Notes: generated from the sequence alone by a model not told the origin. 64,000 nucleotides of DNA from Thermodesulfovibrionales bacterium (GCA_030682405.1 JAUXOF010000047.1:18877-82876), one strand, 5' to 3'. Positions 2-41,531 are shown, numbered from the stretch's first letter. Numbers and translations are program-made.

Positions 2-211
2 GTGCTTGCGGCCTTCAACCTCATACCCGTGCCCCCTCTTGACGGAGGCAGGGTGCTTGTTGGTTTTCTTCCCAGGAATCAGGCGCATGCCTTAAGCAGG
101 GTTGAGCCTTACGGCATGATGATAGTCATCATCCTTATCGCAACCGGCATGGCGGAGTTTTTCATAAACCCTCTGATAAACCTGTTTCTTGCCGTTCTGA
201 GCCTGTTTTAA
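2..211 (+). CDS. Peptidase M50 (site-2 protease) family membrane metalloprotease, C-terminal fragment; 5' end lies outside the window
   Basis: ORF is open to the window edge. FNLIPVPPLDGGRV matches the conserved NxxPxxxLDG motif of M50 proteases and is followed by hydrophobic helices. Confidence 0.8.
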   Translation: MLAAFNLIPVPPLDGGRVLVGFLPRNQAHALSRVEPYGMMIVIILIATGMAEFFINPLINLFLAVLSLF

Positions 212-319: not shown

Positions 320-349
320 TTGACCAGTTCCTTAAGGCCATAATATATT
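320..349 (+). promoter_or_regulatory. Putative sigma-70 promoter (TTGACC-N18-TATATT) firing into the tandem repeat array
   Basis: -35 TTGACC at 320-325 and -10 TATATT at 344-349 with an 18-bp spacer. Motif match by eye only. Confidence 0.3.
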
Positions 350-368
350 AACTGCATGAGGACACGGA

Positions 369-546
369 GGAACTACCTCCCCTCGCCCCTCCTTGTCAAG
401 GAGGGGATTTAATCCTCCCCTTAATAAGGAACTACCTCCCCTCGCCCCTCCTTGTCAAGGAGGGGATTTAATCCTCCCCTTAATAAGGAACTACCTCCCC
501 CATGCCCCTCCTTGTCAAGGAGGGGATTTAATCCTCCCCTTAATAA
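369..546. repeat. Three head-to-tail copies (59, 59, 60 bp) of one unit, each with a perfect 9-bp-stem palindrome CCCCTCCTT-GTC-AAGGAGGGG
   Basis: Units at 369-427, 428-486 and 487-546. Copies 1 and 2 are identical; copy 3 differs only at CCCCTCGCCCC -> CCCCCATGCCCC. No spacers between copies. Confidence 0.95.
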
Positions 547-726
547 GGGGAGGTTGGAGGGGTAAGGTAGATAAAGAGGGATTTCGGTCAAGCCGGAGAA
601 TGACGAAAGAGAAAATCTCAGGGTTAAAAAAGGGAATGCAAACGGTTTTTAAAGGACTGGAAATTTTCCGGTTAAATTCCCAAGGCATGCTGTGTTATAA
701 TTCTGCACTCCCCCTGGTTTGTGATT

Positions 727-2019
727 ATGGAAAAAGAGCTTCTCATAATAGACGGCGACGAGACCGTTGCACTCGGCATTAAAGGAATAAAAATGTCCGA
801 GGGCTGGAAGGTAAGCGCAAAAAAAAGGCTTTCCTCCGGGCTGAAGGCGGTAAGCGGCGGCTCGCAGATAGTGCTCCTCGCAAGCGCGCTTCCTGACGGA
901 GACGGGATAGACGGCCTGAGGCAGATAAAGGCGTATTATCCCGATGCCATGGTGATAGTGATGGTTCCGGAGGCAGGGGGCAAGGATGCTGTGGATGCGA
1001 TGAGGGCCGGGGCATATTCGGTTATCGGGAGGCCGGCATCTCAGGATATGCTTGAGGTGAGCCTTCAGAGGGCGGCGGAGTGCATTGTGTTTAAGGACGA
1101 GATCAGGAGGCTGAAGACGGAAAACATCCGGCCTCCGGCTGTTATCTGCAAAAGCCCGGAGATGCTGAAGGTTCTGAAACAGGTGGAGAAGTTTTCATCC
1201 AACGACGAGCCAGTGTTCATCTCAGGCGAAGAAGGCACGGGCAGGGAGCTTCTTGCGCGGCTAATCCATTTCCAGAGTTCAAAGAGGGCCGGGGCCTTCA
1301 TATCCGCAGATGCAGAAACGATATCAGAGGAAGGCGACCGCATATCTCAGGCAAAAAAAGGCACGCTTTTTATAAAAGGCATCGAAGGGCTTGCGCCGGC
1401 CCGTCAGGAAAAACTCCTCAGGCTTGTTGCTGAAAGCGAGTTCAGCCGGCCTCCGGGCAGCGAGGCGGGTGAGATTGATGTGCGCCTGATATTTTCGCTG
1501 AACAACAACAGCGGGTTTGACTGGGTGAACCTCAAGGTCCCGCCCCTGAGAAAAAGGAGAGAGGACATACCGCTTCTTGCAAGACATTTTCTGAAAGAGA
1601 CAGGGGAGGTTTTTAAGGCAGGCCCCCGGAGGCTTTCAAAGGAGGCAGAGAAGGCGCTATCGGATTATGAATGGCCGGGCAACGTCACGGAGCTTAAAAG
1701 CGCGGTCAGGAAGGCGTACATAATATCAAAAGACGGGGTGATTCGCAGGCAGGACCTGCTCTCAGAGGGGATAGGCTCTATAAGGGAGTTTCTTGAAAGC
1801 AAGCTGAGCCGGTATCTTAGGGACGCCGCAGGCAGGGGCAACTCCAACCTCTACAATACGGTCATATCCGAGGCCGAGAAGGCCCTGATAGAGATAGCGC
1901 TTAAGGAAACAGGGGGAAACCGGCTTAAGGCCGCAAGCATCCTCGGCATAAGCAGAAACACCCTCGGCGCAAAGGTTAAGGCCTACGGGATTAAGACGAA
2001 GGAGACTGAAGGCAGCTAA
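727..2019 (+). CDS. NtrC/sigma-54-activator-family regulator with degenerate receiver and AAA+ domains and an intact Fis-type HTH
   Basis: Receiver-like N-terminus. AAA+ core GEEGTGRELLARLIH...GTLFIKGIEG...IDVRLIF...WPGNVTELK. C-terminal HTH ALKETGGNRLKAASILGISRNTLGAKV. ATG at 727, alternative GTG at 721. Confidence 0.8.
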   Translation: MEKELLIIDGDETVALGIKGIKMSEGWKVSAKKRLSSGLKAVSGGSQIVLLASALPDGDGIDGLRQIKAYYPDAMVIVMVPEAGGKDAVDAMRAGAYSVIGRPASQDMLEVSLQRAAECIVFKDEIRRLKTENIRPPAVICKSPEMLKVLKQVEKFSSNDEPVFISGEEGTGRELLARLIHFQSSKRAGAFISADAETISEEGDRISQAKKGTLFIKGIEGLAPARQEKLLRLVAESEFSRPPGSEAGEIDVRLIFSLNNNSGFDWVNLKVPPLRKRREDIPLLARHFLKETGEVFKAGPRRLSKEAEKALSDYEWPGNVTELKSAVRKAYIISKDGVIRRQDLLSEGIGSIREFLESKLSRYLRDAAGRGNSNLYNTVISEAEKALIEIALKETGGNRLKAASILGISRNTLGAKVKAYGIKTKETEGS

Positions 2020-11305: not shown

Positions 11306-12988
11306 CTATTTGTATATCTCAAAGGAGTTGGTCATCTGAACCCTCCCGCTTTTGAAATAATCCAGTATGCGGTTAATCCCGTAGTCTTCGGAAACATGCC
11401 TTTCCCTGAGCAAGGAGGCGGCATCGGCGTAAGCCTTGTCCTCTGCCTCGGAGCCCCTTTGCATCGAAAACCCCTCCATTTCCGGTATTATGCCGGGCTG
11501 CACAAGGGTGTGTATGAAGTATACGAATGCAGCGACCTTCGCCATGCCGGCATCAACCGTTTGGGTATTGTCCTTTCTAAAAAGGGTTGAGAGCAGGCGG
11601 AAATACTCCTCCTTGGTCTCAGGGTCAAAGGTAAACCCCAGTCCCGAATAGACCGCATCTCCTGCAAGCAGGCACTTGATTCCAAGATATGCGGCCTCAA
11701 GCCCTATAGTGCCGCGGGCCGTAACCACCCCGTCTGCGGAGTCAAGCACGGACTTGGTGCTCACGTCATCCGGAAGAAAGACGATATGCCCGGGCAGGCT
11801 GTCTCCGTATATCTCCCTTACGATTGTATCCAGCCGCACCTTGCTGTGATAGAAGCTGTGCCTGTTTAGGGGGTGTTCCTTCAGTATCCAGTTTACATCC
11901 TTTATGCCGCCCATGCGTTTAATCGTCTCGCGGGACCAGTCGTAATGGTCATTAAACAGGTACCATCTCTGGTCATGCGGCGCATCCGGGAAGACATGGG
12001 CCATCATGTAGACAAACGGCTTGTTTATGTCTATTTTCATGAGCCCGGCAAGCCCTTCCCTGGTATAAAACCGTTTTCCGGTCTTAAATGCGATAGTGAC
12101 GTTTGGGTCTCTCGTTACGTTTCCCGACATCCTCGCCTCAAAGTACTCCTCTATGACCCTGCGCGCCGTATCGGGATTGTTCTTATAAACGTCGTCGAAC
12201 ATCTCCTTTATCACCTTCCTGTAATAAACAGGCTCATCCTCAGGCTTGAACTTTCTGATGGTAAAGTTACCGGGCGTCTTTCCGTCGCAGCCCGCGAAGT
12301 ACACTGTCAATCCGGCCTCTCTTGCCGCCCGTATCATCGTGCCGTATACGTTGTATACGGCGGCATGCCCGACGATTATATGTTTCACGCTATGTTTTTT
12401 TATGAGTTTCTCGTGGATGTCATAGAAGAACACGGCCTCAACAATCTTCCTGTATAGATAGGGGTCTTTCCTTGAGACTGTGCCGTTTCCAGTGTCCCTA
12501 AGATATGTATCGTATATCAGGTCTCCTATAACCGCGCCTTTATATTTCAATGCTAAAAGATTTTCAGCTCTTGTTGAGAGGAATATAAAGACGGATTTAA
12601 CAAGGCTCATCACGAATGCGAGGGGGAATCTTCGAACACTGAGCATCTCTATGCGGTCGGCGCAGTAGGAGCGCATCACATCAAGCGCCCCTTTCCCTGC
12701 ATATGGCCTTGTGACCCAGACTGTTTTCAGGCCGGTGAGCTTCTTAAGCGCGGCAGATGTAACGCCGATTTCCATCAGCCCGCCGGGATAGGTGTTGAGG
12801 CCGTCAACCAGCACGGAATGCCCTTTTCCCTCGCACCTTCCGCCTAAAAACTCCTGCCATACAGCCCTGTTTGCCTCGCAGAAGGAGGCTGTGCCCCCTC
12901 CTGATAGGGATGTGTCCCCGGCTGCTTCCGCCCCCTTGCTCGCAGGGGGTCGCACCCCATTCGCAGGGGGTCGCACCCCCCCTACCAA
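11306..12988 (-). CDS. Putative capsule-polysaccharide biosynthesis transferase (KpsS/KpsC Capsule_synth-like GT-B); start uncertain
   Basis: C-terminal half ILKEHPLNRH...VVTARGTIGLEAAYLGIKCL resembles the other two such proteins in the window. The N-terminal 20 codons are a 21-bp tandem duplication starting at a TTG. Confidence 0.5.
   Translation of the reverse strand: MVGGVRPPANGVRPPASKGAEAAGDTSLSGGGTASFCEANRAVWQEFLGGRCEGKGHSVLVDGLNTYPGGLMEIGVTSAALKKLTGLKTVWVTRPYAGKGALDVMRSYCADRIEMLSVRRFPLAFVMSLVKSVFIFLSTRAENLLALKYKGAVIGDLIYDTYLRDTGNGTVSRKDPYLYRKIVEAVFFYDIHEKLIKKHSVKHIIVGHAAVYNVYGTMIRAAREAGLTVYFAGCDGKTPGNFTIRKFKPEDEPVYYRKVIKEMFDDVYKNNPDTARRVIEEYFEARMSGNVTRDPNVTIAFKTGKRFYTREGLAGLMKIDINKPFVYMMAHVFPDAPHDQRWYLFNDHYDWSRETIKRMGGIKDVNWILKEHPLNRHSFYHSKVRLDTIVREIYGDSLPGHIVFLPDDVSTKSVLDSADGVVTARGTIGLEAAYLGIKCLLAGDAVYSGLGFTFDPETKEEYFRLLSTLFRKDNTQTVDAGMAKVAAFVYFIHTLVQPGIIPEMEGFSMQRGSEAEDKAYADAASLLRERHVSEDYGINRILDYFKSGRVQMTNSFEIYK
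12940..12981. repeat. 21-bp tandem duplication, each copy containing a GGGGT-CGC-ACCCC mini-hairpin
   Basis: TCGCAGGGGGTCGCACCCCAT / TCGCAGGGGGTCGCACCCCCC lie directly after the SDR stop codon (12982-12984). Confidence 0.9.
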
Positions 12989-24966: not shown

Positions 24967-25993
24967 CGGAAGAAGAATCGGCCCCGGGTATCCGGTATTC
25001 GTCATAGCCGAGATGTCCGGCAACCACAATCAGGACTTTGACGAGGCGGTTAGAATCATACAAGCGGCAAAGGGAGCCGGGGCTGATGCGATAAAGCTTC
25101 AGACATACACCGCAGACACCCTCACGATAGATTCTGACAGCGAATATTTCAGGATTAAGGGCACTCTATGGGAGGGACAAACCCTCTACAGCCTCTATAA
25201 AAAAGCATACACGCCGTGGGAGTGGCACCCGAAACTAAAAGAGGCGGCACAGGAAGCGGGGATAATACTTTTCTCCACCCCGTTTGACAAAACCGCAGTA
25301 GATTATCTCGAAAAGATGGAAGTCCCGGCCTATAAGATAGCCTCTTTCGAGCTTGTGGACATCCCGCTAATAGAATACGCCGCCTCAAAGGGCAAGCCCA
25401 TGATAATGTCAACCGGCATGGCCACCCTCGATGAGATAAAAGAGGCGGTTGATGCGGCAAGGGGAGCGGGAGCAAAAGACATTGCCCTTCTTAAATGCAC
25501 AAGCGCATACCCCGCGCCTCCGGAGGAGATGAACCTGAGGACCATAGCCGACCTATCTGAAAGGTTCGGAGTCGTATCAGGGCTTTCCGACCACTCAATG
25601 GGCATAGCCGTGCCTGCTGCCTCTGTTGCCTTGGGCGCATCCATAATAGAGAAGCACCTCACTTTATCCCGCGCAAAGGGCGGCCCTGATTCGGCTTTCT
25701 CTCTTGAGCCTTCCGAGTTTGCGGCTATGGTTGAAACCGTCAGGGTTGCAGAGAAGGCCGTCGGCGCGGTGCATTACGGGCTTACAGAGAAAGAGGAGAA
25801 AAGCAAGGTATTCAGGAGGTCCCTTTTTGTGGTAAAGGACGTGAAAGCAGGCGATATCTTTACGGAGGATAATGTGCGCTCTATAAGGCCCGGACACGGG
25901 CTTAAACCCAAGCACATAAAGGATGTTTTGGGGAAAAAGGCATCTAAAGACATTAAAAAAGGCACCCCCCTTGACCAGTCTATGCTCCGGTGA
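24956..25993 (+). CDS. pseI: Pseudaminic acid synthase
   Basis: VIAEMSGNHNQD..AIKLQTYTADTLT, YKIASFELVD, STGMATL, C-terminal SAF VKDVKAGDIFTEDNVRSIRPG. Confidence 0.9.
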   Translation: MRISGRRIGPGYPVFVIAEMSGNHNQDFDEAVRIIQAAKGAGADAIKLQTYTADTLTIDSDSEYFRIKGTLWEGQTLYSLYKKAYTPWEWHPKLKEAAQEAGIILFSTPFDKTAVDYLEKMEVPAYKIASFELVDIPLIEYAASKGKPMIMSTGMATLDEIKEAVDAARGAGAKDIALLKCTSAYPAPPEEMNLRTIADLSERFGVVSGLSDHSMGIAVPAASVALGASIIEKHLTLSRAKGGPDSAFSLEPSEFAAMVETVRVAEKAVGAVHYGLTEKEEKSKVFRRSLFVVKDVKAGDIFTEDNVRSIRPGHGLKPKHIKDVLGKKASKDIKKGTPLDQSMLR

Positions 25994-40530: not shown

Positions 40531-41531
40531 ATCTCTATCGCCTCGTCTTTCCTGAAATCGCGCTTAGCCTTTTTCCCAATCACCCTATCCCATCTCATAG
40601 GGCTTATTCCCGTGCCCGGCCTTTTTGCAGTAAGGTTTTCTTCTGTGAATACATCGCCTTTTTTTATGTCCCTTGCCGCAACTATGCTTTTCCTCGCAAT
40701 GGGCCTGTTCTTTATCTCAGAAGGGCTGGGCCTCTTTATGCCGTCTCCGAGGGCCTTATCTATGTTCCTTACGGCCTTTACCATCGCCTTAAGCTCGTTG
40801 GGCTCAAGGCTTGCCTTGTGGTCCGGGCCTTCCATGTCCCTGTCCAATGTAAAATGCTTCTCAATAACCGTTGCGCCCAAAGCGGCGGCGGCTATCGGAA
40901 TTTCTATTCCCAGAGTGTGGTCAGAGTACCCGACTTTTACCATAAGCCTTTCCTTTATCGTAAGCATCGCCCTGAGATTGACATCCTCTGCCGGCGTTGG
41001 GTATTCCGTGTTTGCGTGAAGAACGGTTATATCCTTCTTCTTGGTTCCCGCCTTTATAAGAATTTCCAAGGCGTCTTTTATCTCTGCCATATTGCACATG
41101 CCGGTTGAGATAATGACATTCTTTTTAAGCGCGCCTATCTTCCTCAGATACGGCAGGTTTGTCACCTCCCCTGAGGGTATCTTGAATATCTTAAGCCCGA
41201 ATGAATTCAGTAAATCAACGCCCTTTTCATCAAACGGGGTTGAGAGGAACATTATCCCCTTTTCCCTGCACCGGCTTATCAGCTGCCTGTGCGCCGCAGG
41301 GCTTAGCTCGAGCCTTTTCAGCATCTCATGCTGCGTCTCATTCCTTCCGGTCGTCTTTTTCTGATACTCTGCCTTCGGCGCTGACCTGCTTACAAGATGC
41401 TCCGCCTTAAACGTCTGGAACTTCACGGCATCCGCGCCTGCCTCTGCCGCAACGTCTATCATCTTTTCTGCGATTCTTATGTTTCCGTTGTGGTTTACGC
41501 CTGCCTCTGCGATGACGAATGTCCTCCTCAC
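40527..41531 (-). CDS. legI: Legionaminic acid synthase (NeuB family, with SAF domain)
   Basis: VIAEAGVNHNGN..AVKFQTF, KIPSGEVTN, STGMCN, C-terminal ARDIKKGDVFTEENLTAKRPG. Confidence 0.85.
   Translation of the reverse strand: MRRTFVIAEAGVNHNGNIRIAEKMIDVAAEAGADAVKFQTFKAEHLVSRSAPKAEYQKKTTGRNETQHEMLKRLELSPAAHRQLISRCREKGIMFLSTPFDEKGVDLLNSFGLKIFKIPSGEVTNLPYLRKIGALKKNVIISTGMCNMAEIKDALEILIKAGTKKKDITVLHANTEYPTPAEDVNLRAMLTIKERLMVKVGYSDHTLGIEIPIAAAALGATVIEKHFTLDRDMEGPDHKASLEPNELKAMVKAVRNIDKALGDGIKRPSPSEIKNRPIARKSIVAARDIKKGDVFTEENLTAKRPGTGISPMRWDRVIGKKAKRDFRKDEAIEI

Follow-up and report, generated by a model that had tools for sequence, protein, structure and literature searches.

A probable solo repeat of the BoxC/PIT/triplex-motif class in a Thermodesulfovibrionales bacterium, and the association of its class with DUF559 endonuclease genes

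We analysed a 64-kb stretch of DNA from a Thermodesulfovibrionales bacterium (GCA_030682405.1 JAUXOF010000047.1:18877-82876), here called the window, in which an array of short tandem repeats precedes a gene for an NtrC-family regulator. The segment at positions 368-570 is probably a gene-less (“solo”) repeat of the BoxC/PIT/intrastrand-triplex-motif class, part of which has been amplified in tandem. It would represent selfish or structural DNA and no specific control site for the regulator, and the class to which it is assigned brackets a gene for a DUF559 endonuclease. The array alone is ordinary, being a further copy of a repeat class known since 1992, and the triplex class may not have been described before in this Nitrospirota lineage. 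The main interest lies in the association between the nuclease and the repeat, which is directly testable in Escherichia coli.

Tandem Repeats Finder, run on the 64-kb window, reported a period of 59 with 3.1 copies at 368-548, 97% matches and zero indels, which bears out the three near-identical tandem 59-bp units of the original prediction. A repeat-copy search placed the units at 368-426, 427-485 and 487-545. Units 1 and 2 are 100% identical, and a reading of the sequence shows that unit 3 differs from them solely by one additional base, with the loop CATG replacing TCG. The perfect 21-bp palindrome that had been described for each unit, CCCCTCCTTGTCAAGGAGGGG, occurs exactly three times (386-406, 445-465 and 505-525) and was found nowhere else in the window with up to three mismatches permitted; 100 shuffles gave 0 matches. 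A conserved block of 8-10 nucleotides (nt), CTACCTCCCC, had been overlooked. It lies 5' of every palindrome and is the mirror image of the palindrome's purine arm.

The structure also runs on past the end at 546 that had been assigned to it, to about 570. The segment 547-565 (GGGGAGGTTGGAGGGGTAA) closes a second, different hairpin at 533-553 (CCTCCCCTTAATAAGGGGAGG) and supplies the third stem of this hairpin, GGAGGGGTAA, which follows it after TT. The flanks CTACCT (491-496) and AGGTAG (565-570) are complementary, and the DNA fold of 487-570 has an energy of -24.5 kcal/mol (z -4.2). The second imperfect inverted repeat proposed for each unit (GGAGGGGAT/ATCCTCCCC) is better described as the linker plus the left arm of the second hairpin, hairpin B, the true partner of which survives only after unit 3. 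The element is intergenic, located between gene ends at 211 and 727 in the list of open reading frames (ORFs), and its features are as follows.

368-426: tandem unit 1, 59 bp, consisting of third stem, loop, palindrome A, linker ATTTAAT and the left arm of hairpin B
427-485: tandem unit 2, 100% identical to unit 1
373-406, minus strand: triplex motif 1, type A, with the minus-strand reading CCCCTCCTTG / loop / CAAGGAGGGG / CGA / GGGGAGGTAG (triplex-motif finder, stem 10, at most one mismatch)
432-465, minus strand: triplex motif 2, type A (triplex-motif finder)
491-525, minus strand: triplex motif 3, type A, with a 4-nt second loop, CATG (triplex-motif finder)
533-565, plus strand: triplex motif 4, type B, CCTCCCCTTA / loop / TAAGGGGAGG / TT / GGAGGGGTAA (triplex-motif finder)
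491-570: complete A+B module in inverted arrangement, with hairpins A and B on either side of ATTTAAT, a third stem beyond each, and CTACCT/AGGTAG pairing at the ends
414-429, plus strand: orphan left arm of hairpin B (CCTCCCCTTAATAAGG) in unit 1, and likewise 473-488 in unit 2 (sequence reading)

The triplex motifs were identified with a finder that follows the published ITxF base rules, with looser loop limits and a mismatch rule of our own. The ITxF rules describe a pyrimidine stem, a Watson-Crick purine stem and an antiparallel third stem obeying G.G, A.A and T.A, with stems of 6-15 nt, loops of 1-6 nt and at most one mismatch. In the 64 kb, the finder returned exactly four motifs, all of which are located in 373-565 with a stem of 10 and at most one mismatch, and it returned none in 20 shuffles of the window. 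The second loops of the four motifs are 3, 3, 4 and 2 nt long; the first loop is reported by the finder as 1 nt, which in an actual hairpin would correspond to 9 bp of stem and a loop of 3 nt. The alternation between A and T in the third stem among the relatives matches the permitted A.A-T and T.A-T triplets. In a single strand, the third stem could fold back onto the hairpin to give a purine-motif triple helix (G.G-C, A.A-T, T.A-T). A reading of the G4/C4 tracts as a G-quadruplex or i-motif was set aside, since the mirror-repeat rule and the A/T alternation of the third stem match the triplex rules exactly. Alternative pairings of third stems with arms of the other hairpin (for example, ACCTCCCC with GGGGAGGT) are real in the window, but they are not kept in relatives such as L031 and L040 and were therefore not taken as functional.

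The BoxC/PIT/TMECO class was first known from E. coli in 1992 (Bergler 1992; Hoyne et al. 2000; Holder et al. 2015, PMC4666352). Its members consist of three blocks with a second loop of about 3 nt, are always intergenic and without strand bias, frequently form inverted pairs that always join an A with a B, and are associated with rearranged loci (PMC4666352). Strain MG1655 contains 23 copies, all of them intergenic and strand-unbiased, with five inverted pairs, each A + B (PMC4666352). Triplex formation in vitro is reported from circular dichroism, nuclear magnetic resonance and dimethyl sulphate footprinting, for TMECO only (PMC4666352). The effect of the class in E. coli is local genome instability, with a link to rearranged loci, and no mobility genes or functions were noted near the motifs (PMC4666352). 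The inverted pair is also present in the window, where type A at 491-525 on the minus strand is joined with type B at 533-565 on the plus strand, and many Nitrospirota loci show the same A+B pairing.

From this arrangement, we take it that the module at 491-570 is the ancestral solo element and that units 1 and 2 are its partial duplications. In the ancestral element, a type A unit on the minus strand would have formed an inverted pair with a type B unit on the plus strand. Two duplications of 59 bp, taking in unit A and the left arm of hairpin B, would then have given rise to the array, probably when the polymerase stalled and switched template at the microhomology AGG and unequal exchange ensued. 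The orphan arms of hairpin B in units 1 and 2 are joined to AACTACC, the duplication junction lies 3' of AAGG, and AGGAACTACC is also found at the left edge of the array, at 368-377. The orphan arms together with the left-edge AGGAACTACC form the pattern expected from replication slippage or template switching at short microhomology, and such an account also agrees with the published polymerase blockage and instability at triplex motifs. The same A+B architecture is found in L030, L053, L098, L104 and L106 as well as in loci that flank DUF559 genes.

The triplication itself might be an assembly artefact of a true locus with one A+B module, which would concern the copy number only and not the identity of the element. 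The window was assembled from short metagenomic reads, units 1 and 2 do not differ, and an independent assembly of the locus (L001, Logan contig SRR13727541_39561) starts at about 593, which is 134 nt before the regulator gene and about 25 nt past the array. However, the specific change in unit 3 (CATG for TCG, one base more) means that the array is no simple loop in the assembly, and tandem arrays of the family are present in the independent assemblies L084, L091, L080 and L152. We therefore consider an artefact unlikely.

To place the element in a wider context, a DNA-pattern scan for CCCTCCTTGNCAAGGAGGG was made against one genome per species. The pattern is present in at least 119 stretches, representing at least 119 unrelated loci with 140 sites analysed, from many phyla, while we estimate that about 10-20 would be expected at random for that sequence size. 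The counts in this paragraph refer to the matches listed. These come from Nitrospirota, Armatimonadota, Planctomycetota, Bacteroidota, Acidobacteriota, Patescibacteria, cyanobacteria and several proteobacterial classes. At 121 of the 140 sites, CC[A/T]CCCC or GGGG[A/T]GG is located on one or the other side of the palindrome, mostly at a distance of 2-5 nt (searched up to 44 nt); this block is outside the search pattern, yet it co-occurs with it. By a crude ORF call, 102 of the 140 sites are intergenic, and the gene pairs around the sites are more often convergent (17) than divergent (6). Both orientations of the sites relative to the flanking genes are equally common. Several genomes carry copies of the motif on many contigs, and tandem or closely paired arrays recur, as in L084 (period 68), L091 and L080. 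The usual form in the Nitrospirota is that of the last module in the window, in which about 10 nt link hairpin A to hairpin B and a third stem lies on the outer side of each. Dispersed copies, which had been put forward as the mark of a generic repeat, are thus found at many unrelated loci in other genomes, but the window itself holds a single locus. A BLAST search of the consensus module against plasmids gave no match, possibly from low-complexity filtering, and a full-text literature search for the repeat sequence strings gave only unrelated primer matches.

In one lineage, the units are carried by an element of about 260 nt, within its own terminal inverted repeats GGCTCTTGCAAAACC, of which there are at least 11 dispersed copies with unrelated flanks. 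The element resembles a miniature inverted-repeat transposable element (MITE) and is seen in L036, L038, L045, L050, L056, L057, L068, L089 and L093, all from Armatimonadota-like metagenome-assembled genomes (MAGs). It has two triplex motifs inside, one of which has the hairpin GACCTTCGGCC inserted in its second loop. No parent insertion sequence was found.

An all-against-all comparison of the ORFs across the 119 loci listed revealed that, among these matches, DUF559 (PF04480, E 1.7e-30; about 120 residues) is the sole small protein family that recurs beside the element. The gene is present in four loci from different phyla, each time with motifs on both sides. From metagenomes, 80 loci were selected solely by protein homology to the DUF559 protein, and in 64 of them a triplex motif is located within 150 nt of the gene, upstream in 59 and downstream in 55. 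Counted as clusters at 90% identity, the fraction is 45 of 58. Near the DUF559 gene, motifs are 36 times as dense (6.6 per kb) as in the rest of the flanks of these loci (0.18 per kb). The upstream motifs are mostly on the plus strand, half of them ending no more than 21 nt from the ATG, while the downstream ones lie mainly on the minus strand, beginning at the stop codon or immediately past it. In the Nitrospirota, the stop codon TGA is placed within the loop between the third stem and the hairpin, and one Thermodesulfovibrionia MAG shows the complete arrangement of an A+B module, the DUF559 gene and a second A+B module. Similar motifs flank DUF559 genes on one or both sides in Picosynechococcus PCC 7002 (plasmid pAQ6), Pseudanabaena, Deinococcus proteolyticus, Photobacterium, Azospirillum, Neisseria gonorrhoeae and at E. 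coli ycjD. The stems are lineage-specific, and both arms and the third stem change together. These results show that the triplex repeat class is tightly and generally coupled to DUF559 genes across phyla.

The arrangement in D. proteolyticus (L207, plasmid pDEIPR03, gene at 592-933) has the reversed orientation, with the upstream motif on the minus strand and the downstream motif on the plus strand; here, the DUF559 gene seems to lie inside a single A+B pair, not between two pairs. Many DUF559 homologs are located on very short contigs, and the repeats appear to break short-read assemblies.

In the DUF559 alignment, which spans E. coli to the Nitrospirota, the catalytic-type residues expected of a Vsr-like PD-(D/E)XK active site do not vary; the invariant D and E residues are D53, E64 and D66 in the numbering of the first sequence. 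The nearest structure, 3HRL, is that of the sole solved DUF559 homolog and was deposited as an endonuclease-like protein, and a published classification places DUF559 with Vsr and a homing endonuclease. In the searchable literature, the coverage of which does not extend to subscription journals, we found no link of DUF559 or ycjD to these repeats, no function or means of spreading for the BoxC/PIT/triplex motifs, and no role for DUF559/YcjD proteins.

The findings on dispersal and on neighbouring proteins also bear on whether the array is a classical repetitive extragenic palindromic (REP) sequence served by a RAYT protein, or a MITE from a DDE transposon, in either case a palindromic repeat mobilised by a Y1 or DDE transposase whose gene lies at another place in the genome. 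In keeping with this, the repeats are short, palindromic, intergenic and dispersed, with inverted pairs and tandem clusters like those of BIMEs, and in one lineage the 260-nt element with terminal inverted repeats houses the units. However, among the matches listed, no transposase or RAYT family recurs in the top ORF clusters of the 119 loci, and DUF559 is the only small family that adjoins the element; the larger recurring clusters are long proteins whose adjacency was not checked. The conserved GTAG head of REP sequences is absent, the flank being CC[A/T]CCCC instead, and in mirroring the stem this flank bears the signature of a triplex and not that of a guide sequence for a transposase. No target-site duplication was seen at the module in the window, though the flanks CTACCT/AGGTAG are complementary. 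Mobilisation by such transposases is thus decidedly improbable. The REP- or MITE-like reading of the original prediction was right in kind; more precisely, the repeat falls into the BoxC/PIT/triplex class.

The association can be followed at one locus in E. coli, where ycjD is the only DUF559 gene and adjoins fabI (formerly envM); BoxC was reportedly first noted in the envM sequence paper. In MG1655, TMECO number 9 is located 168 nt downstream of ycjD, and in strain 042 a motif overlaps the ycjD stop codon. The gene is present in 3378 of 5426 complete E. coli genomes (62%). Within the sapF-fabI interval (L213, L215, L216 and L217), the block of ycjD and two or three triplex motifs (about 0.75 kb) and the eefRABCD efflux operon exclude one another (this analysis with PMC12817139). 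No motif was found in this interval in the two eef-carrying strains examined, and ycjD and the motifs are thus gained or lost together. The number of motif places was counted in an evenly spread sample of E. coli genomes:

With ycjD (n = 37): 9-22 motif places, median 15; genomes with four or fewer, 0
Without ycjD (n = 22): 1-16 motif places, median 3; genomes with four or fewer, 14

The difference is significant (one-sided Mann-Whitney p = 1e-8), but the number of motifs follows the phylogroup and hence provides no independent evidence.

As a tentative proposal, to which we would give slightly less than an even chance, DUF559 (YcjD-family, Vsr-like) endonucleases may be the cognate enzymes of the BoxC/PIT/triplex repeats, forming co-evolving, lineage-specific pairs in most phyla and acting on the folded structure to spread the repeats or to integrate their own cassette. 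The nuclease would recognise or cut the folded repeat of hairpin and third strand. It might disseminate the repeats in the manner of RAYT and REP, or else the solo modules might serve it as sites of integration or recombination. A circle carrying one module that integrates into a chromosomal module would yield the order module-gene-module, and if the two flanking modules recombined, only a solo module would remain. The array in the window might then be a non-autonomous, amplified relic of such a system. If true, the partnership would explain the genome instability at triplex-motif loci and would represent a second partnership of a nuclease and a repeat beside REP/RAYT, with a different enzyme fold and a triple-helical DNA target. 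The gene-bracketing layout is common to E. coli, cyanobacteria, Deinococcus, Bacteroidota and Nitrospirota, and it links the question of what the repeats do to that of the role of DUF559.

Several observations weigh against assigning the array to this class or the class to the nuclease. The stems in the window, CCCCTCCTTG and CCTCCCCTTA, do not match the E. coli TMECO consensus CCCTCNCCC-N3-6-GGGNGAGGG-N3-GGGNGAGGG, from which it follows that the element belongs to the class and not to the TMECO sequence family. The 64-kb window contains one locus of the element and no DUF559 gene, and a promoter-like site at 320-349 points into the array, so that some transcription of the array is conceivable. 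Among the matches listed, only 4 of the 119 loci found by the DNA pattern carry a DUF559 gene. The association between DUF559 and the repeats is statistical, and no biochemical activity of any DUF559 protein on triplex repeats is known. The authors of the 2015 study saw no functional pattern among the neighbouring genes (PMC4666352). In E. coli, the correlation of motif number with ycjD is confounded by phylogroup, and O157:H7, which lacks ycjD, still has about 12 motifs.

The genes and signals that surround the element in the window are listed here.

2-211, plus strand: 3' end of the upstream gene, peptidase M50 family, forming the left edge of the intergenic region (ORF list; Pfam PF02163, E 5e-7)
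320-349, plus strand: sigma-70-like promoter consensus match TTGACC-N18-TATATT (10/12 positions), pointing into the array and probably not part of the element
692-702, plus strand: extended -10 box TGTGTTATAAT, the likely promoter of the regulator, 3' of the array and outside the element
727-2019, plus strand: NtrC-family response regulator with a degenerate AAA+ domain (Pfam; the ATG at 727 is the start of the protein on record), a neighbour and not a functional partner

The site at 320-349 had been noted in the original prediction and is indeed present, as is the ORF at 393-782, which appears in the ORF list and traverses the repeat. The sigma-70-like sites in the examined region number two, compared to an expected 0.7. 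A promoter inside the module, made up of TTGCCA or TTGACA in the hairpin loop and a -10 box, was ruled out by eye because of a spacing of 12-13 nt or a poor -10. The description of the downstream gene as a degenerate NtrC-like regulator agrees with its altered Walker motifs, as judged by eye, and with a truncated match to the sigma-54 interaction domain. The translation resembles that of an inactive ATPase, with GEEGTGRE as Walker A and, for Walker B, GTLFIKGIEGL without the usual DE pair; the stretch expected for the GAFTGA loop appears to be missing. The best Pfam stretch of the sigma-54 interaction domain spans only positions 2-63 of the 168 in the profile. The closest relatives of the regulator are 406-438 residues long, compared to about 463 in the next group.

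The promoter-like site raises the question of whether the array is transcribed into an RNA, either as a leader in which the hairpins act as attenuators or as a small RNA that sequesters CsrA-type proteins or ribosomes through its repeated GGA/CCUCC motifs. The direction of the site and the RNA fold of 350-730, which is more stable than its shuffles (z -4.9), are consistent with such an RNA. However, the extended -10 box TGTGTTATAAT is invariant in the window (692-702), L123 (11-21) and L124 (749-759), 25-40 nt 5' of the ATG. Its position 3' of the array suggests that the regulator is transcribed from a promoter of its own beyond the array, and this speaks against a leader or attenuator. The three regulators that share this box are only about 50% identical at the protein level. 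No terminator-like site was found in 150-800, the 3' side of the stem being ATTTAAT, and a search of Rfam with the window and 18 related loci yielded nothing at gathering scores. With relaxed thresholds in 200-800, only sub-threshold matches to microRNAs and miscellaneous families were obtained, the best bacterial one being Whalefall-1 with 17.5 bits against a cut-off of 37; a scan for tRNA and tmRNA found none. The GGA triplets, which had been suggested to act as a CsrA/RsmA-type sponge, are located in stems and not in loops, and the family shows no bias in orientation relative to the neighbouring genes. PIT elements of E. coli showed neither promoter nor terminator activity when tested, and the DNA purine-motif triplets with A/T alternation in the third stem, to which the relatives conform, cannot form in RNA (PMC4666352). 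Taken together, a functional transcript from 320-349, be it a leader or a sponge, is very improbable.

In the syntenic orthologous loci L121 and L122 (regulator, MTA phosphorylase, TldD and LpxC; 46% identity), gatB abuts the start of the regulator gene with zero spacer. L124 has a spacer of 313 nt 5' of the regulator, of which the last 200 nt (581-780) were read by eye, without use of the motif finder, and no motif was seen. Judging from these loci, the array is not conserved with the regulator. The proposal that the array is an operator or upstream activating sequence, in which the Fis-type helix-turn-helix of the regulator binds three palindromes at 59-bp spacing and autoregulates or activates a divergent or downstream promoter, is scarcely credible: although the array is located about 180 bp upstream of the regulator gene and consists of perfect palindromes at regular intervals, an identical motif, third stem included, is found beside unrelated genes in many phyla (at least 119 contexts), the orthologs have no spacer or, in the stretch of L124 that was read, no motif, the identity of units 1 and 2 points to recent duplication and not to conserved phasing, and the asymmetric third stem has no place in a model of dimer binding. 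The array should be annotated neither as a regulatory site nor as a gene.

Elsewhere in the window, a perfect tandem repeat of 1.9 copies with a 21-nt unit, TCGCAGGGGGTCGCACCCCAT, is present at 12940-12979. Two adjacent inverted-repeat pairs of 53 and 44 nt, 74-75% complementary and about 15.6-15.9 kb apart, are found at 25252-25446 and 41071-41265; they are probably part of two diverged homologous genes in opposite orientation.

The element in the window is closest to the BoxC/PIT/TMECO repeats. In both, a pyrimidine stem is followed by a purine stem and, some 3 nt further on, by a third stem in mirror order, and both are of G/C-rich purine-motif types. Both are likewise intergenic and strand-unbiased, with inverted A+B pairs and a link to local rearrangement, and both motifs are dispersed, the one in the window as judged from other genomes. 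They differ in the stems, which are CCCCTCCTTG and CCTCCCCTTA in the window and CCCTCNCCC in E. coli, and in the hosts, which are Proteobacteria for BoxC/PIT/TMECO and Nitrospirota (Thermodesulfovibrionales) for the window. Furthermore, the copy in the window shows head-to-tail amplification of one unit, and while the triplex is known from experiments on TMECO, it is here predicted from the sequence alone.

The proposed partnership with DUF559 has its nearest counterpart in REP/REPIN sequences and RAYT. Both systems consist of short multi-copy palindromes in inverted pairs and clusters, with one or a few flanked protein genes per genome and a repeat that is specific to the protein lineage. However, the partner here is a DUF559 (Vsr-like PD-(D/E)XK) nuclease and not a Y1 transposase, the GTAG head of REP is replaced by a mirror repeat as the conserved flank, and mobilisation by DUF559 is only a suggestion. 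The free-standing homing endonuclease genes of the Vsr-like EDxHD type (I-Bth0305I) also encode a small nuclease of a Vsr-related fold in a selfish cassette that occurs either whole or not at all. In contrast to these, DUF559 genes have no intron or intein context, the structured repeats that flank them far outnumber the gene, and no cleavage target is known. Finally, the cassettes of integrons with their attC sites also consist of a small ORF bounded by folded imperfect palindromes, in the order site-ORF-site, but the triplex repeats come with no integrase, no cassette array and no R or L boxes, and the likeness is one of layout only.

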